Part shown: piece by piece, positions 13,650 through 62,233 of the stretch
How positions within the stretch are numbered: position 1 is the first letter of the stretch
How the letters are laid out: each line of letters starts with the position of its first letter
Assembly (NCBI GenBank): GCA_017649855.1
Contig: JAGCGA010000007.1
Span: 65,339-129,338, forward strand
Origin: Bacteroidales bacterium
GTDB lineage: Bacteria > Bacteroidota > Bacteroidia > Bacteroidales > WCHB1-69
Direction: 5' to 3'
DNA length: 64,000 nt
The notes under the pieces: generated by a model
What the model was told of the DNA's origin: nothing
Database searches by the model: none
What the model saw: the letters and a program-made list of their open reading frames with translations, nothing else
Position numbers and translations under genes: made by a program

Positions 13650-13736
13650 CCTTGAACTTTGACCTTGAACTTTGACTTTGAACTTTGACTTTGAACTTTG
13701 ACCTTGAACTTTGACTTTGGCCTTTAGCATTTTGGT
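13645..13736. repeat. A-type array: six 13-mers TTTGACYTTGAAC plus TTTAGCA TTTTGGT tail
   Basis: Units at 13645, 13658, 13671, 13684, 13697, 13710. Read directly. Confidence 0.9.
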
Positions 13737-13760: not shown

Positions 13761-14681
13761 ATGACAAAAGAGGATTTAGTGAATGAAATCAAGCGTTTGC
13801 GTGAAGAAAAGAACGCGATCATTTTAGCGCATTACTACACCCTGCCCGAGGTACAGGAGATTGCCGATTTCGTAGGCGACAGTCTGGCCCTTGCCAGGAA
13901 GGCCGCCAGCACCGATGCCAGCATCATCCTGTTTGCCGGCGTGCACTTCATGGCGGAGACCGCCAAGATCCTGAATCCGGACAAGAAGGTGCTGGTGCCC
14001 GACATGAGCGCCGGCTGCTGTCTTGCCGACAGCTGTCTCGCCGCCGACCTGGCCCGTTTCAAAGAGGAGCATCCAGACTATCTCGTCCTGTCGTATGTCA
14101 ACTGCACTGCGGCAGTCAAGGCACTCTCCGACCTGATTGTCACCTCCGGCAACGCCCTGAAGCTCGTCAACACTCTGCCCAAAGATGCCAAGATACTCTT
14201 CACCCCCGACCAGAACTTAGGTGACTACATCAACCGTCAGACGGGTCGGCAGATGTTGCTGTGGGACGGCATGTGCCGCATCCACGACCACTACACCCTT
14301 GAGGATTTGGCCTTGCTGAGAGAGTCCTACCCCGGCGTAAAGGTAGTGGCCCATCCGGAATGCCGCCGCGAGTTTCTGGCACAAGTCGACTTTGTAGGCT
14401 CCACCGCCGCCATGATCAACTACATCTCCGAGAGTCCTGACCAGGAGTTCATCGTGGCCACGGAAAGCGGCATCCTCCATGAACTGAAGAAACGCAACCC
14501 GGGCAAGACCTTCCACACGCTCTACAACGGCGACCTGGCCCACGACTGCGGAAGCATGAAGAAGAACAACCTGGAGAATATCTACAAGGCGCTGCTCAAC
14601 GAAGATCCGGAGCTGACAATGGATCCGGAGCTGATGGCAAAATCCTTGGCTCCGATACAAAAGATGCTGGAGTTATCGTAG
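13761..14681 (+). CDS. nadA: quinolinate synthase
   Basis: ILAHYY, VHFMAETAKILNP, VVAHPEC. 306 aa. Confidence 0.9.
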   Translation: MTKEDLVNEIKRLREEKNAIILAHYYTLPEVQEIADFVGDSLALARKAASTDASIILFAGVHFMAETAKILNPDKKVLVPDMSAGCCLADSCLAADLARFKEEHPDYLVLSYVNCTAAVKALSDLIVTSGNALKLVNTLPKDAKILFTPDQNLGDYINRQTGRQMLLWDGMCRIHDHYTLEDLALLRESYPGVKVVAHPECRREFLAQVDFVGSTAAMINYISESPDQEFIVATESGILHELKKRNPGKTFHTLYNGDLAHDCGSMKKNNLENIYKALLNEDPELTMDPELMAKSLAPIQKMLELS

Positions 14682-14737
14682 GCCATTGGCTGTTAGCTGT
14701 TAGCCATTGGCTATTAGCCTTTGGCTGTTGGCCTCAG
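14682..14737. repeat. B-type array: eight heptads GCYRTTR
   Basis: GCCATTG GCTGTTA GCTGTTA GCCATTG GCTATTA GCCTTTG GCTGTTG GCCTCAG. Confidence 0.9.
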
Positions 14738-15652
14738 GTATTCCAAGGAAAGGGCAAAGAAGGGGTTGAAGTCGTTGATTCTGAGCAGTGTTTTCAACTC
14801 AGAAGCCTCTATTCCTGCAAAGGAGGCATAATAGTGCCATAGCTCCTTCAAGATGAAGAGGGTGCTTTTTTCTTTGCGGGTTTCCAGCAGTTCATCGGCA
14901 TAGCGCTGATAATAGCGCAAAAATCTCTCTTGCTTGTCGCAACTGTTCATCCCTTTCATTTCTTCTGCCAAAAAAGGATTGCAGAGGATCGGGCGTCCCA
15001 GCATCCAGTCCTGGACCTCCGGGAACCGCGCCTGGAGCTGGCGGTACGTTTCCACGGTCCACACGTCACCACTGTAGATGACGCGATGGGTAGTATGTCG
15101 AAGGCAATCGGCAAAAGCTTCCAAGTCGGGGACGCCATCGTAGAGCTGCTCACCTAAACGGGGATGGATCACGATGTATTCGAGTGGATAGTGTTGCATC
15201 CGCTCCAAGATGGCGAGGCTCTCGGACTTGTCATGCAGTCCCAGCCTCATCTTCAAAGAGAACTGGAAGGGGGTCTGTTCGGTGACAGCCCGGACGACTG
15301 CCTCCACGATTTCGGGATGGGGCATCACGCCGCAGCCGCGCGTGCGTCGTACCACCTGCGCCACGGGACAGCCGATATTCCAATTGAAGGAGGTATAGCC
15401 ATATTCATCGTGCAGCTCCCGCATCGTGTCCACAAAATGGGCCGGGTTGTTGCCCATCAGCTGCGGGGTCATCGGCCGACAGGCATTGTTCTGCGGCCAC
15501 AGATCCTTCCACTTCTTCACGTTGAGCTTGGCATGCTCCTGCACGGGCAAGAAAGGGGCAATAAAATTGTCTATGCCACCGACATGGCGACATAGACAAT
15601 TTCTGAATTGATAGTTCGTAATCCCGTCCAGGGGCGCTAACCAGACAAGCAT
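14714..15652 (-). CDS. tRNA-dihydrouridine synthase family protein
   Basis: LAPLDGITNYQFRN N-terminus and TIM-barrel Dus-like layout. The last ~7 codons lie inside the heptad repeat 14682-14737. Confidence 0.6.
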   Translation of the reverse strand: MLVWLAPLDGITNYQFRNCLCRHVGGIDNFIAPFLPVQEHAKLNVKKWKDLWPQNNACRPMTPQLMGNNPAHFVDTMRELHDEYGYTSFNWNIGCPVAQVVRRTRGCGVMPHPEIVEAVVRAVTEQTPFQFSLKMRLGLHDKSESLAILERMQHYPLEYIVIHPRLGEQLYDGVPDLEAFADCLRHTTHRVIYSGDVWTVETYRQLQARFPEVQDWMLGRPILCNPFLAEEMKGMNSCDKQERFLRYYQRYADELLETRKEKSTLFILKELWHYYASFAGIEASELKTLLRINDFNPFFALSLEYLRPTAKG

Positions 15653-16618
15653 CTATCTGACGATCACCTTTTGGGTAATGGTTTGAGAATCAGACTGCAG
15701 ACTCAGCATATAAACACCCGCCGGCAAGGCAGATACAGAGATCTGCTCTTGGCCCTCGCCGTTGCCGGACAGCAGCAGACGGCCTGTCAGATCGTGCAGC
15801 TGATAGTGGAAGCCTCCTTCGGGGGATTGGATGGTCAGCTGGTCCTCTGCCGGATTCGGGAAAATAGCGAAACGCTTTTCCTGATGATCTTCCACGGCGA
15901 CATTTTCATAGTACAGCGTCACATCATCCACAATCAGGGTCGTATTCTCATGCGTTTGGAGTCCGCCGGCCACGACAATGATACAGATGCTGTCGCATGC
16001 AGCCAAAGGGCTATCGAACTGTGCTTCAATCTGGGTGTAATCATTCATCGTGGCACCGGTTGTATAATATGCGTAGGAAACGGGAGTTCCGTTACTCTTG
16101 GTGAAGGCCGTCACGATGAGGGAGTCGCCTTCCTCGGGTTGGTATTTCACCCACATCTTGATGCTATACGGAGTGGTCGTGCATGCATCGCCGGGTGCCA
16201 CCATTCCTGCCAAGGAAGAGAGGGTGGAGACATCACTAAAATCGATGTCCGAAAAGTTGCCTTGGGCGATATCCATAATCAGGGACATGGGGATGTTGAA
16301 CCCATTGGAGGTACCCAGTTGGGCAATGCCGGGCAGCAGATAGCTGTATTCGGTGCCGGGGATGCCGAAGGTGGCAGGACGCAATTGCAATGCCCGCGAG
16401 CCACTATGAGCATCGGAGGTGGAGGATCCGAAGCTCACGGAAACAGGAATGGGCACCTCAACACCAAAAAGTTCCGTCAGGATATTACCATTCAAGCCAG
16501 TGGTCCAGGATGTCGGCTGGTTATTACTCCAACTTTCGAAACCGTTGTTGGGTACCACTTGAGCGCTCAAGATGCCAACAGACAGCGCGATAAAAAGGGT
16601 AAAAATTGTCTTCTTCAT
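15653..16618 (-). CDS. T9SS type A sorting-domain protein (PCMD-like N-domain)
   Basis: Signal peptide. NNGFESWSNNQPTSWTT. C-terminal FPNPAEDQLTIQ...AGVYMLSLQSD.QTITQKVIV is a typical Por-secretion CTD. Confidence 0.7.
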   Translation of the reverse strand: MKKTIFTLFIALSVGILSAQVVPNNGFESWSNNQPTSWTTGLNGNILTELFGVEVPIPVSVSFGSSTSDAHSGSRALQLRPATFGIPGTEYSYLLPGIAQLGTSNGFNIPMSLIMDIAQGNFSDIDFSDVSTLSSLAGMVAPGDACTTTPYSIKMWVKYQPEEGDSLIVTAFTKSNGTPVSYAYYTTGATMNDYTQIEAQFDSPLAACDSICIIVVAGGLQTHENTTLIVDDVTLYYENVAVEDHQEKRFAIFPNPAEDQLTIQSPEGGFHYQLHDLTGRLLLSGNGEGQEQISVSALPAGVYMLSLQSDSQTITQKVIVR

Positions 16619-16675
16619 TATGAAATAGATTTTAAGGTTTTATGCGTGCAAATATACAGTTTTATTTAATACCAA

Positions 16676-16742
16676 GTTGAACTTTGGCTGTTGGCCATTA
16701 GCCATTAGCTGTCACTTCTAACTGTCAACTGCCAACTAACTA
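16676..16742. repeat. compact composite A-B-C element
   Basis: GTTGAACTTTG, then GCTGTTG GCCATTA GCCATTA GCTGTCA, then CTTCTAA CTGTCAA CTGCCAA CTAACTA. Confidence 0.85.
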
Positions 16743-17924
16743 TATTGCTCCCAGGATGGCGGCGATGGCGACACCCAGGTAGTTGCCGATGGCGTAGCCG
16801 ACCAAGCCGATCACGATGCCGCTCAACAGGACTTTGCGGTTGCCGAGGGCCTCCACGATCGGGGGCACGAAGGGCGGCGAGCAGAGCAGGCTGATATGGC
16901 CCACCGTGAAGAGGTCACCATTCACCTTGAAGATACGGCAAATGATGATGTGCAGCACGATGGAGATCAGCATGACAAAGAGGATGTACCACATGATGGT
17001 CAGCGTGGATCTGTTGATTGCATAGATGTTGAACTGGGAAGATACCGCCACGCTGAAGATAAGGATGAAGAACATACCCAGCTCGAACGTCTTGGGCAGG
17101 TCGCGCACCTTCTGGCTAAAGGAAGCGATGATAGACAAGGTGGTGATGGTCAGGATGACCACCAGCTCATTAAGTTTATGGGTCAACAGGAGTGAGAGGC
17201 CAGCGCCGATTGCCAGGAAGAGCACCGAGAGCAGCAGTCCCAGCATCATCTTCCCAAAGGTGCCGCGTTTGAACATCCCCTTATAGTTCTCGAAAGAATC
17301 GTCTTCGAGATGCATTTCAGGAGTAGTCGTCTCTTCAGCAGATGCGGCATCGGGATAGGGCATCAGTTTGCGGAACAGTTTATAGCCACCGGCCACGATA
17401 AAGAGGATGAAGGGGAAGGTGACGATCTCCTCAAAGGTCAGGGTCAGCACGATGAGGCTGGGATCCACGTCCAGGGCGAGGCCGAGGGAGTTGAAGTTCA
17501 TGGTGCCGCCCGTGTAGATACCGGTCATCATGGCAGCAACCTTCTCGAACTGCGGGACATCCTGATTCCGGAAGACGAAGTAGCCGGCCACCAAGGCCAC
17601 CAGCACCGAGAAGATGCCGCCGAGCAGGACGGCCATCGTCTTGGGCAGTGATTTCGTCCACAGTTTGAAGTCCGAATTGAAGAGCATCAGGGGAATAGCC
17701 AAGGGCACGGTGATGTTCATGAGCAGTTTCTGCCAGGAGGCCAGTTGCTCGGCGCCAGGCTCTGTACCCGTGGGGAGGATGCCGGTCAGCGCGATGATGA
17801 TACCCACGGCATAGGCCATCATGACCGTGCCGATCTTCTGGGTCCATTTCACCTTGGAAAAAAGCAGGATAATCAGCACCGGGAAGAGGATATATCCTGC
17901 AAGCATTGCGATAGAGATTGCCAT
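16740..17924 (-). CDS. polytopic membrane protein (DUF819-like)
   Basis: About 11 hydrophobic segments. Start set to MAISIAML (17924). Family call from memory only. Confidence 0.45.
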   Translation of the reverse strand: MAISIAMLAGYILFPVLIILLFSKVKWTQKIGTVMMAYAVGIIIALTGILPTGTEPGAEQLASWQKLLMNITVPLAIPLMLFNSDFKLWTKSLPKTMAVLLGGIFSVLVALVAGYFVFRNQDVPQFEKVAAMMTGIYTGGTMNFNSLGLALDVDPSLIVLTLTFEEIVTFPFILFIVAGGYKLFRKLMPYPDAASAEETTTPEMHLEDDSFENYKGMFKRGTFGKMMLGLLLSVLFLAIGAGLSLLLTHKLNELVVILTITTLSIIASFSQKVRDLPKTFELGMFFILIFSVAVSSQFNIYAINRSTLTIMWYILFVMLISIVLHIIICRIFKVNGDLFTVGHISLLCSPPFVPPIVEALGNRKVLLSGIVIGLVGYAIGNYLGVAIAAILGAI

Positions 17925-17984
17925 ATTGATAATTTTCTTGAATGATTCTATGAAAAAGAAGTCGCAAACATACAAAAAATTCTA

Positions 17985-28930: not shown

Positions 28931-29725
28931 TTACACTCTATTTAACAAACACAACACAATGGCTCCTGCCACGATGGCCATACCAAAGCTAAGCAAGGTG
29001 CCGACCAACACATATTCTGACTTGTTCGTGGCACTATCTTTGAAACGCAGGAGTGATTTCGCAGCCAGCAGGAAACCGATGGCTTCAAAATGGCCAAACA
29101 TCATAAAAATCAAAGTTAACAATCGCTCCACATCGCCAATCACATGTCCTGCATTGGGCAAATCTTGAGCGGATGCTGGCACATCGGCATCATTGTCTTC
29201 TTGTGATGACGAATCAGACGCAGGATCGTGCGGACACTTGATTTGGGCGTTGGACAGAATTTCACCGATGAAAATATTGGCCGGACGCAGACAAAAGGCA
29301 AAGGCGGTGATCCAGAGCCATGTGGAGTTGGAGATCATATTGAGCGGGGTGACCACGCCATCATAGGGAATTTTATAGCTCACGGTACTGCCAAACCAGG
29401 CAACCACCGCACCAATGACCAGCAGGTGCAACGCTTGGTCTATAAAAAACACCCAAGGGACCTTTTTGAAATGAGCTTTCAACCCGTCAATCACACCATG
29501 CAGCACGGCAATGACCATGGAAGCCCACCAAAAATCAAAAGTATAGGGATACAGGAGCGACAACATCCAAGAACAGAAGAAGGTGATGGCCACATGCACG
29601 TACAAATGCGGTGATTGGAATCCCCATTTGGCCTTATCCTGGCAAGATTTACCTGTTTGCAGATAAAAATCGCTGATGATATGAGCCAATATCTGCAATA
29701 TGAAGAGTTTAATCATCATTATCAA
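28931..29725 (-). CDS. DUF3307 membrane protein (SatE-like)
   Basis: N-terminus LFILQILAHIISDFYLQT, later HGVIDGLKAH and DQALHLL. Start overlaps the SatD-like stop by 8-17 nt depending on which Met is used. Confidence 0.6.
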   Translation of the reverse strand: MIMMIKLFILQILAHIISDFYLQTGKSCQDKAKWGFQSPHLYVHVAITFFCSWMLSLLYPYTFDFWWASMVIAVLHGVIDGLKAHFKKVPWVFFIDQALHLLVIGAVVAWFGSTVSYKIPYDGVVTPLNMISNSTWLWITAFAFCLRPANIFIGEILSNAQIKCPHDPASDSSSQEDNDADVPASAQDLPNAGHVIGDVERLLTLIFMMFGHFEAIGFLLAAKSLLRFKDSATNKSEYVLVGTLLSFGMAIVAGAIVLCLLNRV

Positions 29726-30416
29726 GATTTAGGGTTTCATAGTAAAGCACCGCCTGCTCCAATGCGTTCCAGCCGACCGCGGTGCTATGCTGATTGACAG
29801 CTGATTGCTTGATATTCAATATTTCAGCTATCTCCATCTCTGTTTTTCCGGAGAGTTTCTGATACAAGACCTCGCACTGACGCGCATTGGCCTTTCGAAG
29901 CAACACGTCGATGAGGCCCAACAACACATTCATCTGTTGCGTCAAGGAGTCGTTGTCGGCTTTGAAGAAGAGAGTATTCTTGATCACCGCCCGCTCCTTC
30001 TGGGAGGTTCCTTGGTATTCCATCAAGCGCCCGGCGTAGTAGATAGCCTCGCCATCCAGCGTATCACGCTCTTTGTCGGCAACACGCATTTCGCCCAAGC
30101 CGATAGCCATCCGAATGCCATATTTCTTGAAAAGGATTCTTTTATTTTTCCTTTCCGGAGTTGCGTCTTCCAGATCCTTCAAAGGCATCTGTTTCACCAA
30201 CGTCTTCAATTTCAAGGCCGTACGCAGCGCTTTGTGGGGATCAGACAAGAAAATCTCCACCGCGTCTCCCTTGACTATTCTACCCCACTGTGTGGTAGTA
30301 TCGTCATGTTCAAGTTCACTCAAGAAACGGCGGATACTTTGGTTAAGGGCACTCTTCTCCTCCATGGACAAGGAGGAAGAGGATACGATATCGGCTGAGA
30401 TAGCTGCTTGTACCAT
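29709..30416 (-). CDS. SatD-like protein: cyclase-homology-like N-domain plus C-terminal HTH
   Basis: N-terminus AAISADIVSSSSL ... IVKGDAVEIF. C-terminus QCEVLYQKLSGKTEMEIAEILNIKQSAVNQHS is a sigma70-region4/LuxR-type HTH. Confidence 0.55.
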   Translation of the reverse strand: MVQAAISADIVSSSSLSMEEKSALNQSIRRFLSELEHDDTTTQWGRIVKGDAVEIFLSDPHKALRTALKLKTLVKQMPLKDLEDATPERKNKRILFKKYGIRMAIGLGEMRVADKERDTLDGEAIYYAGRLMEYQGTSQKERAVIKNTLFFKADNDSLTQQMNVLLGLIDVLLRKANARQCEVLYQKLSGKTEMEIAEILNIKQSAVNQHSTAVGWNALEQAVLYYETLNLDNDD

Positions 30417-30447: not shown

Positions 30448-30534
30448 TTATAAGTAAAAACACTTATAAAAATAATTTATAAGTAAAAAAGCTTATAATA
30501 CATATTTATAAGCAAATAGACTTATAAACAAGGT
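30448..30534 (-). promoter_or_regulatory. three tandem 29-bp units, each with inverted repeat TTATAAG-N8-CTTATAA (candidate operator array)
   Basis: Units start at 30448, 30477, 30506. Half-sites at 30448, 30463, 30477, 30492, 30506, 30521. Array lies between the galE stop and the -7 box of the SatD-like gene. Confidence 0.6.
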
Positions 30535-31571
30535 CAATGAGATCCTTCGGAATCCAGATATTGTTCCCATTTCCAGGCGCTCTCCATCATATCATGCACA
30601 TTATAGCGGCAATTCCAATGAAGGAGGGTATTGGCGCGGGAGCTGTCGCCGTAGATAGCGGGGATGTCGCCTGCGCGGCGGCCGCCGACGGTATAGTTGA
30701 GTTTATGGCCGACGACCTCCTCGGCGGCCGCCAGCATCTCCATCACGGAAATGCCGTTGCCGCTGCCCAGGTTGAAGACCTCGCACTGTTCCTGATTACG
30801 GTGTTCGAGCAGATAGTCCATGGCCTTGACGTGCGCATCAGCGATATCGGAGACATGGAGATAGTCACGGATGCAGGAGCCGTCGCGTGTATCGTAGTCG
30901 GTGCCGAACACCTGCATCGAGGGCTGCTTGCCTGAAGCCACCCGCATGATGATGGGCACCAGATTGTTGGGCTTGTCGGGCGAAAGTTCGCCGTTCATGC
31001 CGGAGATGTGCGCTCCCACGGGGTTGAAGTAGCGAAGGATGAGCGCGTTCATAGAGGGATTGGGCACCATCATATTGCGAATCATCTCCTCCCCTATCTG
31101 TTTGGTATGCGCATAGGGGCAGAAAGCCTGACCCATCGGAGTCTTCTCGCTGACGGGCAGATTCTTGACATCGCCATACACGGAGCAGGAAGAGGAGAAT
31201 ATCAGTGCCTGGATGCCGAAGTGCAGGCAGGCCTCCAACACGTTGGCCAGCGCGCCGAGGTTATTGCGATAGTACATCAGCGGCTGCTCCACCGACTCGC
31301 CCACAGCCTTGTAGGCGGCGAAATGGATGATACCTTGTATGTCGGGATTCTCCTCAAAGACCTTGAAAAAGGCTGCCTTGTCGCAGATATCGACCTTGTA
31401 GTTGGGCACCTTCACGCCAGTGATCCGCTCCACGCGGCGCATTGTCTCGGGTGTACTTCTGACATTGTTATCCACGGACACCACTTCATAACGGCCACTT
31501 TGCACCAGCTCAATGATGGTGTGGGAGCCGATATAGCCACAACCGCCGGTCACCATAATTTTCTTCTTCAT
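30534..31571 (-). CDS. galE: UDP-glucose 4-epimerase
   Basis: VTGGCGYIGSH, YAHTK (YxxxK), 345 aa. Confidence 0.9.
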   Translation of the reverse strand: MKKKIMVTGGCGYIGSHTIIELVQSGRYEVVSVDNNVRSTPETMRRVERITGVKVPNYKVDICDKAAFFKVFEENPDIQGIIHFAAYKAVGESVEQPLMYYRNNLGALANVLEACLHFGIQALIFSSSCSVYGDVKNLPVSEKTPMGQAFCPYAHTKQIGEEMIRNMMVPNPSMNALILRYFNPVGAHISGMNGELSPDKPNNLVPIIMRVASGKQPSMQVFGTDYDTRDGSCIRDYLHVSDIADAHVKAMDYLLEHRNQEQCEVFNLGSGNGISVMEMLAAAEEVVGHKLNYTVGGRRAGDIPAIYGDSSRANTLLHWNCRYNVHDMMESAWKWEQYLDSEGSH

Positions 31572-43288: not shown

Positions 43289-43328
43289 CAAAAAATAATT
43301 GTATTATTGCAGCGAAATCATCATCATT

Positions 43329-44513
43329 ATGAAGTCGAACCATTTTTTTACTTGGTTGCTTATGCTCAGCCTGTTGTGCACAAATCTCGCAGTGACAGCG
43401 CAGAACGACACCATCCCTTTTCTCTACCGTGGGCATCTCTACTTTAACGCCACCCTCAACGACACCATCCGCCTCAACATCATATATGACACCGGAGGCG
43501 CCGACCTGTTCGGGGTGGACTCCGTATGGCTGGCCCATTCCAACTGGACGCCCATGCATGTTGTCACTGCCCGGGGCGGAGGCGGGGCCGGCTCCATGCT
43601 CGTTCCACTCATCATCGATCAAACAAAGGTCAACATCGGCAGTATCCAGGAATATTACGACATGGTTCCGGTCTTCAAACTGCGGGAGGTGGTGGACTGC
43701 CACATCGACGGCATCAGTGGCATCAAGGGCATTGAAAACCATCCGTTGGAGATCAACTTCGAGCACAACTTGATGATCCAGCACAAAAACGGCCTGCCCG
43801 ACACAGAAGGTTATCAGAAAATCCCCATCAGACACGAAAACAACCGTATATACCTTCAGGCAGAGACCAAAATCGGAGGCACCCTAGTCAAAGGATGGTA
43901 TCTGATGGACACTGGCAGCGGCGGCTCCGTCACTTTCACTTCCCAAACCGCCAGCCAATTCCAATTCGACACCATATCCGGAAAAAGATATATCAACGAT
44001 GTCATCCAAAGCGGCCTGGGCGACAAGACTGAGGAATACGCCATCAGCATGATGCCCGACTTCATGGTTATCGGGGACGACACCATCTCGGGAAGGCCTC
44101 TCAACTACAAACCTGAAGGCGTGGGCGCTTTCGGCAACGCAGAATACCTGGGGGTGATCGGCAACGCCATCTGGTCGAAGTACAACATTATCATCGATTC
44201 GGAAAACGAGATGCTCTACCTGCGTCGTTTCAAGGAGTTCACCCCGCCCATCCCCGCTTATGACTATACTTTCAGAAACCGCACGGATATCTGCAAAGGC
44301 TGGGTGGTCTCAGGAATGACCCGCGAGGGGGATGCCGCCAACGCAGGCATGGCGTTGGGCGACACCATCATCTCCATCAACGGAAGAAACGTGACCGACT
44401 ACTCCTGGGAAGAGGAATGGGACATCGACACCATCCCCATGCAGGTGCTGGACATCCTAGACCACGACGGCACCGAAAAACGCATTACGCTGGAGGCGAA
44501 GCAATGGTGGTAG
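43329..44513 (+). CDS. secreted pepsin/retropepsin-like aspartyl protease with C-terminal PDZ domain
   Basis: Two D-T-G motifs (IIYDTGGADL, LMDTGSGGSV). PDZ-like GDAANAGMALGDTIISINGRNV. Signal peptide from MKSNHFF (43329). Confidence 0.65.
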   Translation: MKSNHFFTWLLMLSLLCTNLAVTAQNDTIPFLYRGHLYFNATLNDTIRLNIIYDTGGADLFGVDSVWLAHSNWTPMHVVTARGGGGAGSMLVPLIIDQTKVNIGSIQEYYDMVPVFKLREVVDCHIDGISGIKGIENHPLEINFEHNLMIQHKNGLPDTEGYQKIPIRHENNRIYLQAETKIGGTLVKGWYLMDTGSGGSVTFTSQTASQFQFDTISGKRYINDVIQSGLGDKTEEYAISMMPDFMVIGDDTISGRPLNYKPEGVGAFGNAEYLGVIGNAIWSKYNIIIDSENEMLYLRRFKEFTPPIPAYDYTFRNRTDICKGWVVSGMTREGDAANAGMALGDTIISINGRNVTDYSWEEEWDIDTIPMQVLDILDHDGTEKRITLEAKQWW

Positions 44514-44520
44514 GATATCA

Positions 44521-44622
44521 GCTGTTGGCTGTTGGCCATTAGCTATTAGCCATTGGCGGGTAGGGTGACTTTGACTTTGAACTTTGACTTTGAACTTTGG
44601 ACTTCTAACTGATAACTGATCA
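44521..44622. repeat. composite B-A-C element
   Basis: Six B heptads (44521-44562), A run TTTGAC/TTTGAAC (44566-44601), three C heptads (44602-44622). Confidence 0.9.
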
Positions 44623-46152
44623 CTTTTTGAAGGGCAGCGAAATCATGAAGGTACTCCCCTTCCCCTCGATGCTCTGCACCTCGATCTTGCCTTTGTGCAG
44701 GTTCACAATCTTCTTCACATAGCCCAGACCCAGGCCGTAGCCCTTCACATTGTGCACGTTGCCACTGGGCACCCGGTAGAAGTTGTTGAAGATCTCACCC
44801 AGCGACTTCTTCGGAATCCCGATGCCCTTGTCGGTGACAGAGAGCATGAAATATTTGTCGTTGGAGAGGGTGTTGATGAGGATCTCCGGCTCGTGTTCCG
44901 AATACTTGATGGCATTTTCCACGAGGTTAACCAGCACATTAGTTAAATGCTCTTTGTCTCCGAATATCTTATAGTTATCTGCATTGAGCGCCAGATTGAG
45001 AGAGCCATTATTGCTGTTCACCAGCAGGGCCACACTGTCCACCACTTTCCGGATCAACTCGTGCATATCCAGCAGCTCAACGTTCATCTTGACCTGTCCT
45101 TTTTTGAGCTGCGCAATTTGCAGGATGTTGGTCACCATGGAACGAAGCCGCTCGTTCTCATCATGGATGATGTTGACGTATGCGGTCTGCATGTCGGGAT
45201 CCGACATGGTCACGTTGTCGCCCAGCGCCTCGCAGGCCAGCGAGATGGTGGAAATGGGCGTCTTGAACTCATGGGTCATGTTGTCCACAAACTCATTGGT
45301 CACCTCCGACACTTTTTTCTGGCGATAGAGGGAGATCAGGGAGACCAAGGAGATGGCAGAGACCAGGAAGAGCAGGAAGAGAATCATGATCACGATGGTG
45401 CTCATCCTTTGGAGGAAGATTCCGCGCTCACCGGGGAAATAGAGGATGATATAGTGGGGAGAGCTCACCTTCTCATTGTATTTCAGGCGGAACACATAAT
45501 CGCTCTGGAGCATCTTCTCGCGCGGCATATAGGCCGGCTCCACCACAAACTCAGTGGTGAATGCATTGTAGAGGGCGAAGTCGAAGCGGGCTTCGATGGT
45601 CTCCTCATGGAGGGCCTCCTCCAACAGGTTGCGCAGGAGACTGGGTGACAGCAGCAGCTTCGTCGTGCTGTCGAGCTGCACCATGTTGACATCCACATTC
45701 TCGAGGAAGCTGTTGGGAATCTCCTCCTGGTTCTTGGGCGACCATGGGTCTTTGTACAATGGGAAGAGTGTCCGGAAGGAGTCGCTGAAGTAGGTGGTGT
45801 CGCTGGAAACGACGCGCGCATTGTCTTCTTTCAGGTAGATCTCCGTCATAATCACCCCTATAGGCTGATTCTTCGCACTGTCTATCAAAAATTTACGAAT
45901 ATTCTGCACCGAGACCACATCCGAGGTGTCCATCGTTCCCGTCAAGGTAGTGTCGGCCAGGGGAAGCGTGTCGTTCTTCAAGATGGCATCGATCTGGTCC
46001 ACCACGGTGTTGCCAGCGGAGAGCACCTCATTGACGAAGATGCTGCGCTGCACCTTCTCCGCCTCCGTGTAGAGCTTGAAGATGGAGAGCATCAGAAAGA
46101 AGGTGGTGACAATCACCACTAAAAACAGCGAAACTAATATTCTCTTTTTCAT
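44620..46152 (-). CDS. sensor histidine kinase
   Basis: H-box MTHEFKTPISTI, N-box LVNLVENAIKYS, G-boxes DKGIGI and GYGLGL. Two TM segments. Confidence 0.85.
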   Translation of the reverse strand: MKKRILVSLFLVVIVTTFFLMLSIFKLYTEAEKVQRSIFVNEVLSAGNTVVDQIDAILKNDTLPLADTTLTGTMDTSDVVSVQNIRKFLIDSAKNQPIGVIMTEIYLKEDNARVVSSDTTYFSDSFRTLFPLYKDPWSPKNQEEIPNSFLENVDVNMVQLDSTTKLLLSPSLLRNLLEEALHEETIEARFDFALYNAFTTEFVVEPAYMPREKMLQSDYVFRLKYNEKVSSPHYIILYFPGERGIFLQRMSTIVIMILFLLFLVSAISLVSLISLYRQKKVSEVTNEFVDNMTHEFKTPISTISLACEALGDNVTMSDPDMQTAYVNIIHDENERLRSMVTNILQIAQLKKGQVKMNVELLDMHELIRKVVDSVALLVNSNNGSLNLALNADNYKIFGDKEHLTNVLVNLVENAIKYSEHEPEILINTLSNDKYFMLSVTDKGIGIPKKSLGEIFNNFYRVPSGNVHNVKGYGLGLGYVKKIVNLHKGKIEVQSIEGKGSTFMISLPFKK

Positions 46153-54061: not shown

Positions 54062-54171
54062 CAACTTTATCTCCACATTTCACCTCAAACTGTAGCTGTC
54101 ATCCCCTTCTACCAAGCTTTAACCCCTGCGGGGTTTCTCGCACCCTGCAACTCATCGTGCCAAGGCTTTAA

Positions 54172-54206
54172 CTCTTAACTGCTAACTGACAACTGTCAAC
54201 TCCTTA
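54172..54206. repeat. C-type array: five heptads
   Basis: CTCTTAA CTGCTAA CTGACAA CTGTCAA CTCCTTA. Confidence 0.85.
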
Positions 54207-56660
54207 CATTCCCATTCCTTGGCCGCCCTGACCGCCTTGGGCTTGTGCTTGGGCGCCCTCCAGTTCCATCTTGCCGAACTTGAAGGAGATGCCGCCACGG
54301 ATGCTGCGGCCCATCCAGTTGCTCCAGGTGGTGCTACTGAGCGTATAGTACGGATTGTTGACATCGGTGCCTCTCCGGTTCCAGTTGAAGATGTCGTGCA
54401 CATCCACAAAGACAGAGATGCGGCGCTTCCAGAACTCGGCGCGCAGACCGGCATCGATGCTGTAGCGCGGACGCGTAACCGTGAACATATTCACGCTCTT
54501 GGAGGTGTAGTTAGCCGAAGCGTTGACCTCCAAAAACTTCCACAGCTTGGCCCAGAAATTCAAACGGAAACTATAGCCTAAATTGTCCACCACATGCGGT
54601 TCCTCCTGATCACGGAACTGAAAGCTGGACTTCATATAGTAAACATTGGCATAGAAACGAATGTTCATGAAGGCCTTGAGACGGTACATCACATTCAACT
54701 CCGCACCCGTGTTGAGCGATTTGCCCGCATTGACTGGCATGGTATAGGTGACATAACGCCTAAAGAAGGGGCTGTAAGCCACATCCGACTGCGAGCTGAA
54801 CTCGTCCTTGCTGTTCTTGAACCAGGCGTTGAGGCCGACATTGCCGAACTTGTTGATGTATTTGGTCCAGCCGGCCTCGATGGAATTGGTGAAGCTCTGT
54901 CGCAAGTCAGGATTGCCAACGCTGTAGCCATCCTCGCCGTAATAGATACGGGTGCACAAGTTGTCACCGTCGGGATTGTTCACGCGGCGCGTGTAACTGA
55001 GCTTGAAGTTATGCATGTTCTTGGTGCGGTAGCTCAAGTGGAGGGAAGGGTAAAGTCCCCAATAGCCCTTGTGCACATCGTATTGAGGGTCGTTGAGGAT
55101 AAGCAGGTTGTAGATTTCATACTCGGTGCGCAGACCGCCCTTGAGGGTGAAGCCGCCGAAACGGTGCTGCAATGTGACGTAAGCGTCCACACTGCCATCT
55201 CGGGTGCGCACATCCTTGAAACGGAGCTCATCCAGCACATATTCGCCGGTAGAAAAAACCAACGTGTCGTAGCGTTCATAATTCAAGCCTGGATCATATC
55301 CGCCCGACACGCCCAATTCTATTTCCCCGTTTTTATGATAAGGGATAGTATAGTCCACGGAGGCACTCAATCCAAACGAACGGTAGTGATTCTCCAGCTT
55401 CTGCTTTTTGTCTAGATTGTCCAGAAAAAGGTAATCACGGAAGGCATCACCTTTTTGCTTTCTGCCCCACGTCCAAAAACTCACATCAGCGCTGATCTTG
55501 TGGCCCTTGCTGTTGAACTTGTGCTCGTACCACATTCCACCATAGCCGCCGCCACCGACCGTGCTTTGTGTCTGGTCATTGAAGAAAGAACGATCGCTGG
55601 GATTGATATATTCTAGGTAAAAGGTGGAATCCCGATAGGTGTAACTGCCAAAGCTGGGATAGGTGCCCGCCCAGAAGTAGATGCTGTTCATCGTATCGGG
55701 CGTGTAGGAGCCGTTAATGTAGAGGCCGAAGTTGTGATCCCGTTGCCGGAACTTGTTGATACTATGAATTGTAGTAGAGGTGTCGCCCTCATCCGTCAAT
55801 ATCGTGGCGAACGACTCGCTATTATTCTTGTCAGTGCCATAGGAGTAGTTGAGATAGGTACTGATGGAGAACTTCTCGTTGGCATAGACATAGGAGATAA
55901 AAGGGGTGATGCTGGGCGTGGAGGAACCGCGCACACCAAAGCTCAAGAAGCTGTTTTTCTTGATTTTGGAGGTGGTCACGATGTTGATGATGCCGCCGCT
56001 GCCCTGGGCGCTGTAGCGGGCCGACGGGTTGGTGATCACTTCTATTTTCTCGATGCTGCCGGCGGGCATCTGCTGGATGAACTGCTTGAGCGCCTCGGCG
56101 TTCATGTTGGAGGGCTTGTTGTTGATCCAGATCTCCACGGAGGAGACACCGCGGAGGGTCACGTTGCCATCCACATCCACCTCCACACCGGGGGCGTTCT
56201 GTAAGGCGTCCGCAGCGGTTCCCGACTGTATGGTGGGGTCCTCCGAGACATTGTAGAGCGTCTTCTCGCCATCCACCATATAGAGAGGCTTCTCGCCCAC
56301 GATCTGCACCACATCCAGGTCGGTGCTCGTCTTCTTCATATAAACATTACCCATGTCGATGGTCTTGCTATCGCCACCCACCGTAAAGGGCATATTGACC
56401 ATCTCATAGCCGATAAGGGTAGCCACAAAACGATACTCGCCGGCGGGCACATTCGACATCTGGAATACGCCTTGGGCATCCGACAGCGAATGGGCGATCG
56501 TCTGGGCCGTGGAGTCCGGCTTCAACAAACCGATGGTGACGAACATCACCTTTTCATTGTTGAGGGAATCCATCATCGTGCCGGTGATGGTATAGCGACT
56601 TTGGGCCCACAATTGTGCAAAAGCACTTAAAAAAAGAACAAAAACAAGCAATCGTTTCAT
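54204..56660 (-). CDS. TonB-dependent-receptor-like outer-membrane beta-barrel protein
   Basis: Signal peptide. CarboxypepD_reg-like start YTITGTMMDS, plug-like region, long barrel, terminal aromatic-rich strands. Start at MKRLLVF (56660). Confidence 0.7.
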   Translation of the reverse strand: MKRLLVFVLFLSAFAQLWAQSRYTITGTMMDSLNNEKVMFVTIGLLKPDSTAQTIAHSLSDAQGVFQMSNVPAGEYRFVATLIGYEMVNMPFTVGGDSKTIDMGNVYMKKTSTDLDVVQIVGEKPLYMVDGEKTLYNVSEDPTIQSGTAADALQNAPGVEVDVDGNVTLRGVSSVEIWINNKPSNMNAEALKQFIQQMPAGSIEKIEVITNPSARYSAQGSGGIINIVTTSKIKKNSFLSFGVRGSSTPSITPFISYVYANEKFSISTYLNYSYGTDKNNSESFATILTDEGDTSTTIHSINKFRQRDHNFGLYINGSYTPDTMNSIYFWAGTYPSFGSYTYRDSTFYLEYINPSDRSFFNDQTQSTVGGGGYGGMWYEHKFNSKGHKISADVSFWTWGRKQKGDAFRDYLFLDNLDKKQKLENHYRSFGLSASVDYTIPYHKNGEIELGVSGGYDPGLNYERYDTLVFSTGEYVLDELRFKDVRTRDGSVDAYVTLQHRFGGFTLKGGLRTEYEIYNLLILNDPQYDVHKGYWGLYPSLHLSYRTKNMHNFKLSYTRRVNNPDGDNLCTRIYYGEDGYSVGNPDLRQSFTNSIEAGWTKYINKFGNVGLNAWFKNSKDEFSSQSDVAYSPFFRRYVTYTMPVNAGKSLNTGAELNVMYRLKAFMNIRFYANVYYMKSSFQFRDQEEPHVVDNLGYSFRLNFWAKLWKFLEVNASANYTSKSVNMFTVTRPRYSIDAGLRAEFWKRRISVFVDVHDIFNWNRRGTDVNNPYYTLSSTTWSNWMGRSIRGGISFKFGKMELEGAQAQAQGGQGGQGMGM

Positions 56661-56802
56661 AACTTCGCGAAGCAAATGATGAATACTAGAACATCAGACA
56701 ATCAATATATCAATTCCTTACGGTAAAAATCCGTATGCAAAAATCCTCCACAAAGAGAAGACGCAAAAATATAAAAAAGTGCCAAGCATGAACGAGATTT
56801 TG

Positions 56803-58442: not shown

Positions 58443-60434
58443 CTATTCGCCTTGGAGGATTGCGCGCAGCTCCTCCACAGAGAAGCAGACCTTGCGGACG
58501 CGCGGGGCACGCACGTGCTTACGCTTCGGGGACTTCGGCACGACAGGGGGCTCCGAGAAGCGCTGACATATTCCATAGCCCGCCATCACACAATACTGAA
58601 GGAGCATCTGCCCGGTCGGATCCTCAATCGCCAGACTGCTATGGACATTACTCCGAAGATCTTCCATACTATTCATAAAGAAATAGTCGGCCAGGTCGGC
58701 ACGAATAGTATAATAGTAAATCAACTGATCATGGCTAATTACCAGCGAGTCAATTCTTCCAAAGTTGGGAATCTCCATCGGGCAATAGCGATTGTTCGAC
58801 CTCACTATCAGGGACAAGGCGTTACGGCTTTCGAACAGCGGATCGCCGTCGTTCGTCAGCAAAAAGCGAACCTCTTGGGGAGAGTAGGTAAATTGGAGGG
58901 AGTCCTGGGTGGGGACATACAGATAATGCAGCTGGATTCCCAGGCCGAGTTGGACGATATATTGGCCGAACTCATTCCGGCTTTCTGTTCGTAACGCGAA
59001 TTCCATCAACTCGTCCAGGCCGGCTGTATCCAAAAAGTCCAGCACTTCTTCCTTCATCTCGTAATAGAAATGCACTGTCTCCCCATCATATACAACCTTG
59101 GTCATCATCACACTGCCAGCAGGGATCGGGCACTGTTCATTGACCAACTCCACTAATTGATTGAAGTCTGCCTGTTCCAGCTTTGCCATGGCTGCCGTCT
59201 GCAGATCCTCATGGGAATAAAACGCCTTGGGTTCCGCATTTTGCAATTCATCCACGCTCATTATGACCTCAGAATAACGACGAGTTTTATTCTCCACGAA
59301 TACCAAACGCACCCCTTTCAACAGTTTGTAACAATGTTCCAGCGTATAGACCTTATTGCCTTTGACCGCAGGAGGAAACTCTTCCAACAATAGATAAGCC
59401 CAATGCGAAAGCAGGATATCTTTGAGCGCCGTGGCTGCTTGCTGATCCATCACCTTCTCATCTTCATAGGTAAGAACAAGCTGAAGGATATCATCCTCAT
59501 AATCGAATTCCATATCCATCAACTCCTCGTCACGAGCAATCATTTCTTTCCGTGAATTTTCTAAATCCTCACGAAAGAACTCTTTCAGATAGGTTCGCAT
59601 CTCATCATCGGAAGCCTCCTGCAGGTGTTCTGACTGCGCCATCAATTGCTGCAATTGCTCGTTGGGAAAATCCAGCTTGAAAGAGCGAGTATGGTCCGCA
59701 TCCCAATACAAGAATCGCAGTCCGTAACCAGCATAGAACAAAGCGCTTGTGAATGGATGATTGAAGAGAAGCACATTGGTGATGTTCTTTTTCGTCACAT
59801 CCAACCCAGGAAGCACTTCCTCATCCCAAGAGAGCGGAACTCTCAACGAATAGGAATAGGTCAGCCAGGAATCTACCAACATGACCGTATCCATAGAGAA
59901 CACATCGTCCTCGGGTTCTCTCTCTTGATTCTCCGTATAGATCTGTCTGGCCACCAGATAGCGAGCCACCCACTGGTCGGAATTTTTATATTCGGGTTTG
60001 TCGCTGTCTTTCAGAAACTGCCGGACCTCCTCCGCCGAGTAACGCAAGGTAATGACACTATCATTTTCCATCAAGCGAAACACATAGACAAGACCTCCTT
60101 TCACATCTTCTTTTAAAGGAATATAGAATGCACCAAACGGTTCCAGCCACTCTTGATATCGAAGTCTATCGGCAAAGTGCTGTCTCAGGGTCACGCTATC
60201 AAATCCCGCCAGATCACTCTCCTCTATCGTTGCATAGAAACAGAGGGAGCCTTCTTTGAAACGGAAATCAGTAATGATGCAGTCTTCCATTTGAATGGGA
60301 CATACAGCATCCGCCGTTTGGTTGATTCGCTGGGCATATTGCGAAGTGGTAGGCTGCGCCTGCACATCCATACACAGCAGACACACCCACGCACAGACGA
60401 GCCAGCCACCCCACGAAAAATGTTGATCAGACAT
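58443..60434 (-). CDS. secreted protein of five tandem ~130-aa modules, unknown function
   Basis: Signal-like N-terminus. Five module ends: RYSAEEVRQFL, DFPNEQLQQLM, IMSVDELQNA, TYSPQEVRFLL, CFSVEELRAIL. Confidence 0.65.
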   Translation of the reverse strand: MSDQHFSWGGWLVCAWVCLLCMDVQAQPTTSQYAQRINQTADAVCPIQMEDCIITDFRFKEGSLCFYATIEESDLAGFDSVTLRQHFADRLRYQEWLEPFGAFYIPLKEDVKGGLVYVFRLMENDSVITLRYSAEEVRQFLKDSDKPEYKNSDQWVARYLVARQIYTENQEREPEDDVFSMDTVMLVDSWLTYSYSLRVPLSWDEEVLPGLDVTKKNITNVLLFNHPFTSALFYAGYGLRFLYWDADHTRSFKLDFPNEQLQQLMAQSEHLQEASDDEMRTYLKEFFREDLENSRKEMIARDEELMDMEFDYEDDILQLVLTYEDEKVMDQQAATALKDILLSHWAYLLLEEFPPAVKGNKVYTLEHCYKLLKGVRLVFVENKTRRYSEVIMSVDELQNAEPKAFYSHEDLQTAAMAKLEQADFNQLVELVNEQCPIPAGSVMMTKVVYDGETVHFYYEMKEEVLDFLDTAGLDELMEFALRTESRNEFGQYIVQLGLGIQLHYLYVPTQDSLQFTYSPQEVRFLLTNDGDPLFESRNALSLIVRSNNRYCPMEIPNFGRIDSLVISHDQLIYYYTIRADLADYFFMNSMEDLRSNVHSSLAIEDPTGQMLLQYCVMAGYGICQRFSEPPVVPKSPKRKHVRAPRVRKVCFSVEELRAILQGE

Positions 60435-60442
60435 ATAAAAAG

Positions 60443-60586
60443 TTGTCAGTTGTCAATTATCAGTTGTCAGTTTTAGTCAATGTTCAAAGTCAAAGTCAAT
60501 GTTCAAAGTTCAAAGTTTCCGGTTTCAAGATGAAATAGCTAATAGCCAATGGCTAACAGCTAACAGCCAATGGCCAACAGCCAAAC
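60443..60586. repeat. composite element in inverted orientation (C'-A'-B')
   Basis: TTGTCAG TTGTCAA TTATCAG TTGTCAG (60443-60470). GTCAATGTTCAAAGTCAAAGTCAATGTTCAAAGTTCAAAG (60476-60515). Seven heptads GCTAATA..GCCAAAC (60538-60586). Confidence 0.9.
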
Positions 60587-62233
60587 CTAAAGATTCACAT
60601 TCTGGTCCTTCGGGTACTTCACGCTGTAGGAGACGCTGAAGGTGCGGGTCTCGCCGGCCTTGAGTTCCATCTCCCAGGTCAGGACGCCAATGCCCTCCTT
60701 GTTATAGGTAGCGGCGGGAGTCACATCGCCCAGCTTGACCTCGATGTCCTTGTTGTTGGAGATCGGATACTGCTCCTTGAGCGTCAGCTTCACAGGCTTG
60801 GTCTGGTTGTTTTTGACCGTGATCTGGTATGCCTGGGTGACGGTCGTGGTGTTCCCCACATGCTTGGTGCTACAGTAGTTGCTCATCTTCTCCCGTTTGA
60901 CGGAGATGCGTGGGTCGGTGGTCAGCGTCAGCGATATATGCTCATCGGTCACATTGGGGCGCAGGAAAGTCTTGCCCACGAAAGTGTTCTCGAAGGTCAC
61001 GGTAGCGTAGCCCGGCAACAGGTTGTATTGTTCATAGTCGGACAGGTCGGCGATGAGGTAGGTCTCGTCAGACAGCTTCGGGGCGCTGTAGTACTTGTAG
61101 TCGGCCTTGATGTCGTAGCTCTTCAGGTCGATGAGCTGCTCTTTGCCGTTGCCGGGGATGTCGTAGGGCACCGAGATATTGTAGTTGACGGCCACCTCCT
61201 GCATATCCACGTCCACGTAGTCGTCCATCACCAGCGGCGCGGTGGGCGTCCTGGCAGAGGAACTCTCGGCATCTTTGGCCGAGACGCCTTCCAGAGAAGC
61301 AGTCGCGTATGTGACACTATTGCTTCTGGCTTGCACCCCATCCACAATGTAGGATTTGCCCTGACGATGAGGATTGTAAAAGCTGAGGAACCACGTCTTG
61401 AACACGGGGGCCTCCTTCGTGCGGTTGGGCGTGGCGTTGGAGAGTGTCAGTTTCACGTTGTTCCAGTCGATGCCCGTCACCTGCGTCACCTGGGCTTTGG
61501 ATTTCAGCACCACAGGCTTGTCCATGGAGGCGATGTTGATGTCGTAGCAAGGCACCCAGCTGGCCATAACGGTAAAATAGGAGATGGTGAACACCGTGTT
61601 GACCGTCTGCGGCACGCTCACGGTGAGGCGAAGCACGCCCGTGCGCTGCTTGTCTTTGGACTGATCCTGGGAGATCTGCCGCTGAAGACGTTTCACCGTC
61701 TCGTCCAGCTTGGCGATTTTGAGGTTATCCTGGTCGATGCTATGCTGCAGCGGGGCAGCCTTCGACTTATAGAGTTCCATGTTGGCGTTGATGTCGGCCA
61801 CGGAAACGGTGCCATCCTTCTGACTCATATTGTTGAGGGTGCCGTCGGTGAGCATCTTGAGCAGATGGGTATGGACGGTCAACTCGTCCTTAGCCTCCTG
61901 CAGCTGGCGTTTGTAGGAGTACAAGGAGTCTTGCAACTTCTTGATGCGGGCGCTCTCTTCCTTGGGGGTGATATAATCGTTGGAGAACTCAGAGGCGGAG
62001 ATGAGCACGCCGTTGGCGGAGACCTTCAGGCTGGCAATCTCAATATCGGGGCTCAGCCCATTGATCATGACATCATAGCTTCCGCTCTTCAGCGAGGCGG
62101 TGGCCGTATGGGTCAGGGCGGCGCCTTGCAGATAGACGGTGGCATGGTCAATCTTGGCGGTAAACTCATTCTGGGCAAAAAGGGCGGAGAGAGCCCCTGC
62201 AAAAAGCATAATCGTGAGCAGAACTTTTTTCAT
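60587..62233 (-). CDS. DUF4139 / mucoidy-inhibitor MuiA-like protein
   Basis: Signal peptide. N-terminal VTVYLQGA-type start (ATVYLQGAALTH), central coiled coil, C-terminal beta domain. Start at MKKVLL (62233). Confidence 0.6.
   Translation of the reverse strand: MKKVLLTIMLFAGALSALFAQNEFTAKIDHATVYLQGAALTHTATASLKSGSYDVMINGLSPDIEIASLKVSANGVLISASEFSNDYITPKEESARIKKLQDSLYSYKRQLQEAKDELTVHTHLLKMLTDGTLNNMSQKDGTVSVADINANMELYKSKAAPLQHSIDQDNLKIAKLDETVKRLQRQISQDQSKDKQRTGVLRLTVSVPQTVNTVFTISYFTVMASWVPCYDINIASMDKPVVLKSKAQVTQVTGIDWNNVKLTLSNATPNRTKEAPVFKTWFLSFYNPHRQGKSYIVDGVQARSNSVTYATASLEGVSAKDAESSSARTPTAPLVMDDYVDVDMQEVAVNYNISVPYDIPGNGKEQLIDLKSYDIKADYKYYSAPKLSDETYLIADLSDYEQYNLLPGYATVTFENTFVGKTFLRPNVTDEHISLTLTTDPRISVKREKMSNYCSTKHVGNTTTVTQAYQITVKNNQTKPVKLTLKEQYPISNNKDIEVKLGDVTPAATYNKEGIGVLTWEMELKAGETRTFSVSYSVKYPKDQNVNL

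Follow-up and report, generated by a model that had tools for sequence, protein, structure and literature searches.

Heptanucleotide arrays abutting stop codons in an uncultured rumen Bacteroidales lineage, probably slippage-driven repeats of a known kind

Introduction

The cyanobacterial STRR sequences and the heptanucleotide "long simple sequence repeats" (LSSR) of Mrazek et al. 2007 are reportedly over-represented in particular lineages, comprise several families per genome, lie in non-coding DNA, and are said to have been attributed to slippage, while to our knowledge anchoring at stop codons is absent from their descriptions. The present analysis concerns heptad arrays that directly follow the stop codons of three minus-strand genes in a 64,000 nt stretch of a Bacteroidales bacterium (GTDB WCHB1-69; assembly GCA_017649855.1, contig JAGCGA010000007.1, positions 65,339 to 129,338), hereafter the window.

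Heptamer repeats near gene boundaries have been described in several bacteria. TAACTGA direct repeats occur in Beggiatoaceae, Cyanobacteria, and five Bacteroidetes, with forward arrays just before start codons and a reverse-oriented array in Flexibacter litoralis directly after a stop codon (MacGregor 2015, PMC4679880). Stop codons within the unit limit overlap with coding ends, mixed heptamer tracts are found in Gramella, Aequorivita, and Elizabethkingia, and arrays are missing in close relatives (PMC4679880). The heptamers GGGAATC of Xanthomonas and GGGGAYT of Nostoc have a strong bias to adjoin or overlap the stop codon, and their inverted pairs and length variation between relatives were reported with polymerase slippage invoked (Rehm et al. 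2015, PMC4692102). A literature search on STRR with stop codons and on newer TAACTGA work found nothing beyond these two papers. The closeness of heptamers to stop codons is known, and the refinement made here is a phase relation at the nucleotide level and not a new mechanism; Rehm et al. (PMC4692102) gave no single-nucleotide phase relative to the stop, which is analyzed here. The first-pass annotation of the window had proposed an unusual mechanism, which was an overstatement given that heptamers near or overlapping stops (PMC4692102) and the limit that stop codons set on overlap (PMC4679880) were already published.

Heptad arrays proved unusually abundant in this uncultured rumen Bacteroidales lineage. 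They gain or lose whole 7-nt units between close relatives, are nearly all intergenic, and lie hard against stop codons.

Heptad arrays of the window and their closest described counterparts

A periodicity scan together with Tandem Repeats Finder identified six intergenic heptad tracts in the window, and an array stands at the 3' end of 8 of its 54 called genes. The units fall into family A (GCYRTTR, or TTRGCYR when rotated), family B (TTTGAC/TTTGAAC, a 13-nt double unit of 6 + 7 nt), and family C (CTNNYAA, reading TTRNNAG on the opposite strand). Three to five C units occur at each of three sites; elsewhere, A arrays have 5-7 units and B arrays have 5-6 double units. The C arrays and their genes, with domains assigned by Pfam, are:

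54172..54206, minus strand, C-type array 3' of the OMP gene, coding strand TAAGGAG TTGACAG TTGTCAG TTAGCAG TTAAGAG
54204..56675, minus strand, outer-membrane protein (OMP) gene, outer-membrane beta-barrel / TonB-dependent-receptor-like, 823 aa
16715..16742, minus strand, C-type array 3' of the DUF819 gene, TAGTTAG TTGGCAG TTGACAG TTAGAAG
16676..16714, minus strand, further part of the DUF819 tract, reverse A-type units TGACAGC TAATGGC TAATGGC CAACAGC and a B-type remnant CAAAGTTCAAC
16740..17975, minus strand, DUF819 membrane protein gene
44602..44622, minus strand, short C-type array 3' of the histidine kinase gene, TGATCAG TTATCAG TTAGAAG
44620..46152, minus strand, sensor histidine kinase gene

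The terminal heptad after the OMP gene is CTCCTTA at 54200-54206, with the stop TAA at 54204-54206 inside the first coding-strand heptad. The corresponding heptads are CTAACTA at 16736-16742 for the DUF819 gene (stop TAG at 16740-16742) and CTGATCA at 44616-44622 for the kinase gene (stop TGA at 44620-44622). The first-pass annotation had described three minus-strand genes ending in stop plus NNAG followed by TTRNNAG units, and its coordinates and sequences were all correct. The stop triplets inside the window C units (TGA or TAG preceded by T) are shifted by one base relative to the phase of the gene's stop.

The arrays have at least three head-to-tail units, a period-7 excess, a non-coding site, and whole-unit polymorphism, as do bacterial heptanucleotide tandem repeats of the LSSR/STRR type. 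The C unit CTGATAA is TAACTGA rotated, and the plus strand of the kinase array holds two exact TAACTGA copies at 44606-44619; four CTGATAA units were found in the related locus L290 (loci of other genomes are given as L numbers), and most window units are variants such as TTGACAG, TTAGCAG, and TTAAGAG. The arrays also resemble TAACTGA repeats in being intergenic, mixed with other heptamers, and absent at the same sites in relatives, with forward units upstream of starts and the reverse orientation directly after stops. They differ from exact TAACTGA in their degenerate TTRNNAG units with two free positions, and from the described arrays in that most follow stops instead of preceding starts, many unit families occur per genome, and the host is an uncultured rumen Bacteroidales. 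The Beggiatoaceae pattern of forward units a few nt upstream of a start was not shown by the three arrays, and only 60440-60475 fits it.

Period 7, intergenic position, under-representation between divergent genes, and frequent inverted pairs are shared with the Xanthomonas and Nostoc repeats, as are variation in length and sequence between close relatives and the invocation of slippage; those repeats are G-tract quadruplex formers, in contrast to the A/T-rich, C-poor units with stop triplets found here. The several unit families per genome and the non-coding location recall STRR and long simple sequence repeats, a comparison resting on the summaries in PMC4679880 and PMC4692102. Copy number changes by slipped-strand mispairing are common to the repeats of contingency loci (phase variation), which unlike the present arrays lie in coding sequence or promoters and switch genes on or off. 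Here the arrays follow the stop and copy number leaves the protein unchanged, except in the C-terminal tails of Dus (dihydrouridine synthase) in the window and of OMP in L128 and L136. A programmed -1 frameshift heptamer (X XXY YYZ inside an open reading frame, ORF) was considered and rejected, the units being TTRNNAG and positioned after the stop.

Abundance, placement, and orientation across the lineage

One genome per GTDB species was scanned with the OMP alignment, which gave 79 loci (1.36 Mb; fragments, not whole genomes), nearly all titled Bacteroidales/Bacteroidetes metagenome-assembled genomes (MAGs) from rumen or hindgut. OMP homologues ranged from 96% to 55% identity, the named ones being from uncultured Bacteroidales MAGs. 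The control comprised 0.84 Mb of distant Bacteroidota loci from a NadA metagenome scan, with relatives at <=59% identity among the matches listed and no orthologous S4, NadA, Dus, or DUF819 gene ends among them. Gene calls were made with a codon-usage model, under which ORF 15671..16669 was dropped as an antisense ORF and with it as a candidate gene end.

The lineage loci held 110 period-7 arrays, or 8.1 per 100 kb, compared with 7.8 in the window and 1.4 in the distant controls; the same loci had 3.0, 2.65, and 0.6 arrays per 100 kb of period 6, 8, and 9, respectively. Unit families were highly diverse (e.g. TAGACTT, GAGAGTT, TAACAAT, AATTGAG, AGGTTTC, and CTCAAAT). Intergenic location was found for 108 of 115 arrays. 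The array edge facing a stop lay at a median gap of 3 nt (<=4 nt in 60/110), versus a median of 65 nt for the edge facing a start, and 59 stop flanks of <=4 nt were observed against 24.6 expected from uniform placement within the same spacers. A scan of 10 kb past each end of the window in the same genome revealed no further arrays.

The orientation of C arrays followed the adjoining gene boundary. Across the window and L127-L205 (1.42 Mb), 17 of the 20 C arrays beside stops read TTRNNAG in gene sense, while all five beside starts read CTNNYAA and are thus TAACTGA-like. For all families, the sense strand had more G than C in 46 stop-abutting arrays versus 18 with the opposite bias (p = 1e-5). 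Within the window, replication strand was rejected as the cause of orientation, which tracks the abutted gene on both strands (dnaA at 5.6-7.0 kb).

Stop triplets and composition inside the arrays

The stop codon tends to share in the periodicity of the array. When it was compared with the triplets in register in the three following units, 1.51 of 3 positions matched, versus 0.72-1.0 for the remaining six phases (p = 6e-4, n = 36). Sense-strand stop triplets in stop-abutting arrays were in phase with the stop of the gene in 90 cases versus 11-30 per other phase, and 64 of these 90 were identical to the gene's own stop codon. When counted only in arrays beginning at or after the stop, phase 0 had 40 triplets versus 10-19 and was the unique maximum in 12 of 32 arrays.

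Stop-type units were evident at the ends of OMP homologues in L204 (TAGACCT TAGACTT TAGACGT), L201 (TAGAGTT GAGAGTT TAGAGTT), and L190 (TAACAAT TTACAGT TAACAAT), whose array-free relatives stop at the same place. Stop-abutting arrays carried 0.80 stop triplets per unit in sense, compared with 0.58 in antisense, 0.61 after shuffling, and 0.38 in array-free tails, and all three frames were closed in 42 of 55 arrays in sense versus 29 in antisense. Their sense composition (A.37, C.11, G.22, T.31) lies close to the values that hand arithmetic gives for a unit made of a stop codon and four bases of background composition (A.38, C.11, G.20, T.31). A typical unit in the lineage would combine a stop triplet, in the same phase as the gene's stop, with four further bases.

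The spacer behind an ABC-2 permease stop is occupied by an array of another family, CTCAAAT/CCCAAAC grading to TCTCACG, in L003 (17318-17418), L005 (17324-17457), and L129 (17334-17440). Here too the edge unit is the stop (TGAGGTG AGACATG AGACGTG), and the lengths in L003 and L005 differ.

Register between stop codon and array

In the window, the stop occupies the TTR slot of the repeat in five of the six TTR-type arrays, comprising 3/3 C arrays and 2/3 A arrays (NadA and the PDZ gene, with DUF4139 the exception; these tracts are listed below). Under uniform phases, the binomial probability is ~1/49 for the three C arrays and ~3e-4 for five of six, the latter rising to ~0.02 if only stop-like slots are allowed. 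Part of the register is inherited, as the DUF819 orthologues read TAG TTAG TTGGCAG in L286 (98% identity) and TAA TTAG TTGTCAG in L289 (90%), and the OMP orthologues of L001 and L127 read TGA/TAA GGAG TTGACAG.

A tolerant scan collected 14 non-redundant C arrays beginning 3-9 nt after the stop of a long ORF. The first unit lay at +7, the in-register position, in the three window arrays, in L289 (an orthologue), and in L161 (independent), and the others began at +6 (three), +3 (two), +5 (two), and +9 (two). Outside the window, +7 was found in 1 of 10 independent stop-abutting C arrays versus ~1.4 expected, which is the chance level (1.4 Mb of related rumen Bacteroidales MAGs), and in L290 (88% identity) two new C arrays begin at +4 and +12. 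A pattern scan of viral contigs for four-unit TTRNNAG arrays reached many unrelated taxa and was used only as a cross-taxon control; +7 was not favored, and unit-supplied stops at offsets -1 and -8 were commonest among the matches listed.

The shared register is real in the window and is no general rule. The fixed register that had been claimed between C arrays and stop codons was not borne out by the 1/10 outside the window or by the viral contigs, and lapses as a narrow claim since it is not conserved in the larger C-array sample. The TTR-slot register of the three window genes is explained by the lack of a spacer between stop and array, partly by descent, and partly by small-sample coincidence. 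All stop codons are T-R-R and the array reaches the stop without a spacer, so that the stop resembles a TTR unit with one mismatch, and a mechanism that reads the stop codon is not needed for the window register.

Ancestry of the stop codons and turnover of the arrays

The stop positions of the three window genes are older than the arrays. Array-free OMP orthologues in L003-L006 share the stop position and end ...GGGATGGGGATG TAA tgtaaag, the array-free DUF819 genes of L290 and L292 end at the same codon, and the kinase orthologue of L142 (84.5% identity) ends ...AAGAAG TAA ataaccc at the same stop position without an array. Arrays as the source of these three stop codons were ruled out because array-free orthologues stop at the same codon. 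Array-supplied stops do occur elsewhere, including Dus, L128, and L136, and account for 23 of 55 cases.

Unit number differed between close relatives at several sites. The OMP array has four units in the window, six in L001, and seven in L127, the latter two differing by exactly one TTAAGAA unit, and the Dus/NadA array has seven units in the window versus four in L286. L286 lacks the ~75-nt B array at the S4-domain gene's stop, with identical flanks (GAGTTTTGAC and TTTGGCCTTTAGCA) on both sides of the site, and differences in unit number between identical flanks amounted to 7, 21, and ~75 nt. At the S4 stop, L286 reads TTTTGAC|TTTGGCC, which may be a two-unit seed that holds the stop, L289 has a repeat-free spacer of 22 nt, and L290 has a C array after the stop together with reverse (CTGATAA)4 before the NadA start. 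Units also changed in sequence: TTGACAG TTAGAAG at 16715-16728 corresponds to TTTGCAA TCGGGAG in L286 (11190-11205), with 7 of 14 positions changed and the protein 98% identical. The promoter-proximal spacer next to the DUF819 array is ~92% identical between the window and L286. Beginning at the stop, the arrays extend through the spacer until roughly 10-20 nt remain ahead of the next start, and their turnover is fast. A comparison with repeat-free orthologous gene ends had been suggested in the first-pass annotation as a way to separate insertion from expansion in place; it showed a retained stop position, length changes by whole units, and no positive evidence of insertion.

Several features of the OMP locus vary among relatives. 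In the array-free OMP loci L134, L137, L140, L143, and L148, a hairpin-plus-T terminator directly follows the stop (TAA AAAAAGCAGCC....GGCTGCTTTTTTT), and this is the place of the heptad array in the window. A 5-kb indel between the OMP array and mfd distinguishes L001 (12560-17560) and L127 (7450 onward) from the window (54045-54130), encoding proteins of 161 aa and ~1400 aa with no Pfam domain and having B-type heptads at its left edge. Relatives at 84-91% identity have PPDK and not mfd downstream of OMP, so the OMP array lies at a synteny breakpoint.

Proposed origin and alternative explanations

The C heptads are probably (rough probability 0.6) degenerate, slippage-driven heptanucleotide tandem repeats of the STRR/TAACTGA/GGGAATC kind, nucleated at or pinned against the stop codon. 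Arrays would arise by replication slippage as 7-nt tandem duplications. As a 7-nt indel shifts the reading frame, a duplication would be viable only at or after the stop and tolerated only if the first copy keeps the stop in frame, which limits the possible units to heptamers including the stop or located after it. At its other end, the spacer would be constrained by promoter and translation-start sequences. Arrays may thereby nucleate at the stop codon or spread until they reach it, with units often derived from a stop-containing heptamer. The stop would be an edge unit that is not homogenized with the others, remaining T-R-R while inner units drift to, for example, T-T-R. The earlier suggestion of slippage seeded at the stop is retained in this broader form, consistent with the whole-unit changes, the median gap of 3 nt, and the in-phase stop triplets, and is given up for the TTR slot, which was found in 1/10 arrays outside the window.

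Several observations weigh against slippage with frameshift selection as the full account. C-type units are newly present at other gene ends in relatives (the S4 and peptidase S51 stops in L290), and families A, B, and C recur at four or more loci per genome, for which local seeding alone is no explanation. Slippage alone does not produce the rapid divergence of units (7 substitutions in 14 nt), which far exceeds that of their flanks. The window C units do not look like copies of the gene's stop because their stop-like triplets are off by one base. The in-register share of 5/6 in the window versus 1/11 elsewhere gives a hand-calculated Fisher's exact p of ~0.005, for a window that was picked for the pattern. 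The strong orientation rule for C arrays hints at selection or a transcription-linked process. The orientation rule and the recurrence of unit families at many loci fall outside the slippage and frameshift-selection model, and together with the fast divergence of units they are compatible with ectopic conversion from array to array or with a function.

A functional element, in which selection positions 3' untranslated or intergenic signals relative to the stop, is unlikely. Such signals could be an AGTT core that recurs at 7-nt intervals and is recognized by a protein binding single-stranded RNA or DNA, cassettes with stops in three frames at which read-through or frameshifted ribosomes terminate, or tracts in which C-poor sense and C-rich antisense sequences shape Rho-dependent termination. 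The orientation rule (17/20 at stops, 5/5 at starts), the sense G excess (46 arrays versus 18, p = 1e-5), the closure of three frames (sense 42/55 versus antisense 29), the sharing of unit families among many loci and species, and the position of arrays where relatives carry a hairpin-plus-T terminator after the OMP stop would all suit it, and binding of S1, Csp, or CsrA was proposed for TAACTGA repeats (MacGregor 2015, PMC4679880). However, orthologous presence is sporadic among relatives at 88-98% identity with the unit type fully switched at the same site, and unit number is not conserved. The tracts with C arrays showed no significant RNA structure (z -1.5 to +0.65) and A arrays formed only weak hairpins (z ~-2.2), with no palindromic unit resembling repetitive extragenic palindromes or bacterial interspersed mosaic elements (REP/BIME). 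No Rfam 15 covariance model matched at gathering score in the whole window (0 matches), no terminator-like site overlapped an array in 44000-61000, and no promoter signal was found at the arrays. The in-frame backup stop after the OMP gene lies 12 codons off and would be a poor read-through guard, and Rehm et al. (PMC4692102) saw no regulatory role of GGGAATC repeats. It is quite unlikely that the arrays are written or maintained 3' of stops in a fixed transcriptional orientation, by a termination-linked or dedicated process or by selection for a post-termination role; if so, they would form a novel type of bacterial 3'-end element in which the stop itself serves as the first unit, and their role might be that of a three-frame stop or insulator cassette, a protein-read heptad code, or a means of controlling antisense transcription.

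Ectopic recombination or gene conversion between gene ends could have carried the stop-adjacent NNAG from gene to gene, making +7 real for this genome and not for the lineage. The contrast between 5/6 and 1/11 TTR-type arrays in register points this way, as do the A-B-C order at two loci, the location of the OMP array at a synteny breakpoint, the consensus-like nature of the window units that differ from L286 (also present at other loci), and an unrelated NamZ-like gene in L161 that ends TGATCAG TTGTCAG TTAGAAG, with one mismatch in 21 nt from the end of the window kinase gene. Such copying is nevertheless very unlikely, as the sample is tiny and was chosen for the pattern, the 21-nt likeness is by our own estimate plausible by chance given the small unit vocabulary, the spacers of the two composites are unrelated, and no extra arrays lie within 10 kb past either window end. 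Insertion of heptad cassettes at or just after stops by a transposase- or integrase-like activity is highly improbable, although the four bases after each stop are of array type (NNAG) and unrelated to those in array-free orthologues, C-type arrays occur at new gene ends in different genomes, and >120 viral-contig stretches with four-unit TTRNNAG arrays were among the matches listed. The arrays checked vary in length and lack the features of MITEs (miniature transposable elements bearing inverted repeats) or insertion sequences, namely terminal inverted repeats, target-site duplications, and a defined copy length. Their starts are fuzzy and phase-variable (+3, +4, +5, +6, +7, and +9), unit changes in multiples of 7 account for the polymorphism without insertion, and no transposase was linked to arrays in the loci examined. 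The insertion with stop-proximal target preference that had been offered as the other reading of the pattern thus found no positive evidence, full-length copies not being conserved and the composite spacers being unrelated.

Other heptad tracts and neighboring features of the window

The A- and B-type tracts, with one gene that they adjoin, are:

14679..14735, plus strand, A-type array from the NadA stop, TAGGCCA TTGGCTG TTAGCTG ..., filling the convergent spacer and in register with the stop
13645..13725, plus strand, B-type array 3' of the S4-domain gene (13254..13649), the first unit TTTGAC holding the TGA stop
43299..44513, plus strand, PDZ-domain gene
44511..44555, plus strand, A-type array in register with the PDZ-gene stop, TAGGATA TCAGCTG TTGGCTG TTGGCCA TTAGCTA TTAGCCA
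44566..44601, plus strand, B-type array TTTGAC / TTTGAAC, middle of an A-B-C composite
60440..60589, minus strand, A-B-C composite from the DUF4139 stop (TAG, 60587-60589) to the start of gene 58443..60434

The opposite strand of the NadA A array (14714-14735) encodes the final six codons and stop of the Dus gene (14714..15652, minus strand). In the array-free relative L290, the Dus C-terminus is different and shorter, and the OMP genes of L128 and L136 likewise extend one or two codons into arrays. The DUF4139 gene ends TAG GT TTGGCTG, with the A array beginning 5 nt beyond the stop's first base and hence outside the claimed register. The C units of this composite are CTGACAA in gene sense and end ~8 nt before the ATG of gene 58443..60434. 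The composites at 44521-44622 (plus) and 60440-60586 (minus) have the same family order, A then B then C, and their A-B spacers are unrelated in sequence. The A-B-C composite as a hairpin or MITE was rejected, with A and C units only 5/7 complementary and folding due to A-A and not A-C pairing.

The window probably adjoins the chromosomal replication origin, since a dnaA gene with Bac_DnaA, DnaA_N, and DnaA_C domains lies at 5593-7041 (minus strand). Three tandem AT-rich hairpins (TTATAAGyAAA..CTTATAA, period ~29 nt) at 30447-30528, unrelated to the heptads, stand between the stop of an NAD-dependent epimerase gene (30534..31571, minus) and the start of a LuxR/GerE-type gene (29709..30416, minus). 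To the right of the window in the same genome, L298 (11597-17150) encodes TPR, TIR/ThsB-like, RyR-domain, and 713-aa proteins, a cluster that could be an anti-phage defense island.

Significance of the arrays

If the arrays are ordinary slippage-driven heptanucleotide repeats, their chief relevance is to annotation and assembly. In rumen Bacteroidales MAGs, hypervariable heptad arrays occur about once per 12 kb. They mark the 3' ends of genes and can alter the final few codons of a protein, as for Dus in the window and OMP in L128 and L136, and their differences from strain to strain could make them strain markers. Arrays that start at the stop with in-phase triplets fit frameshift selection filtering where 7-nt duplications survive.

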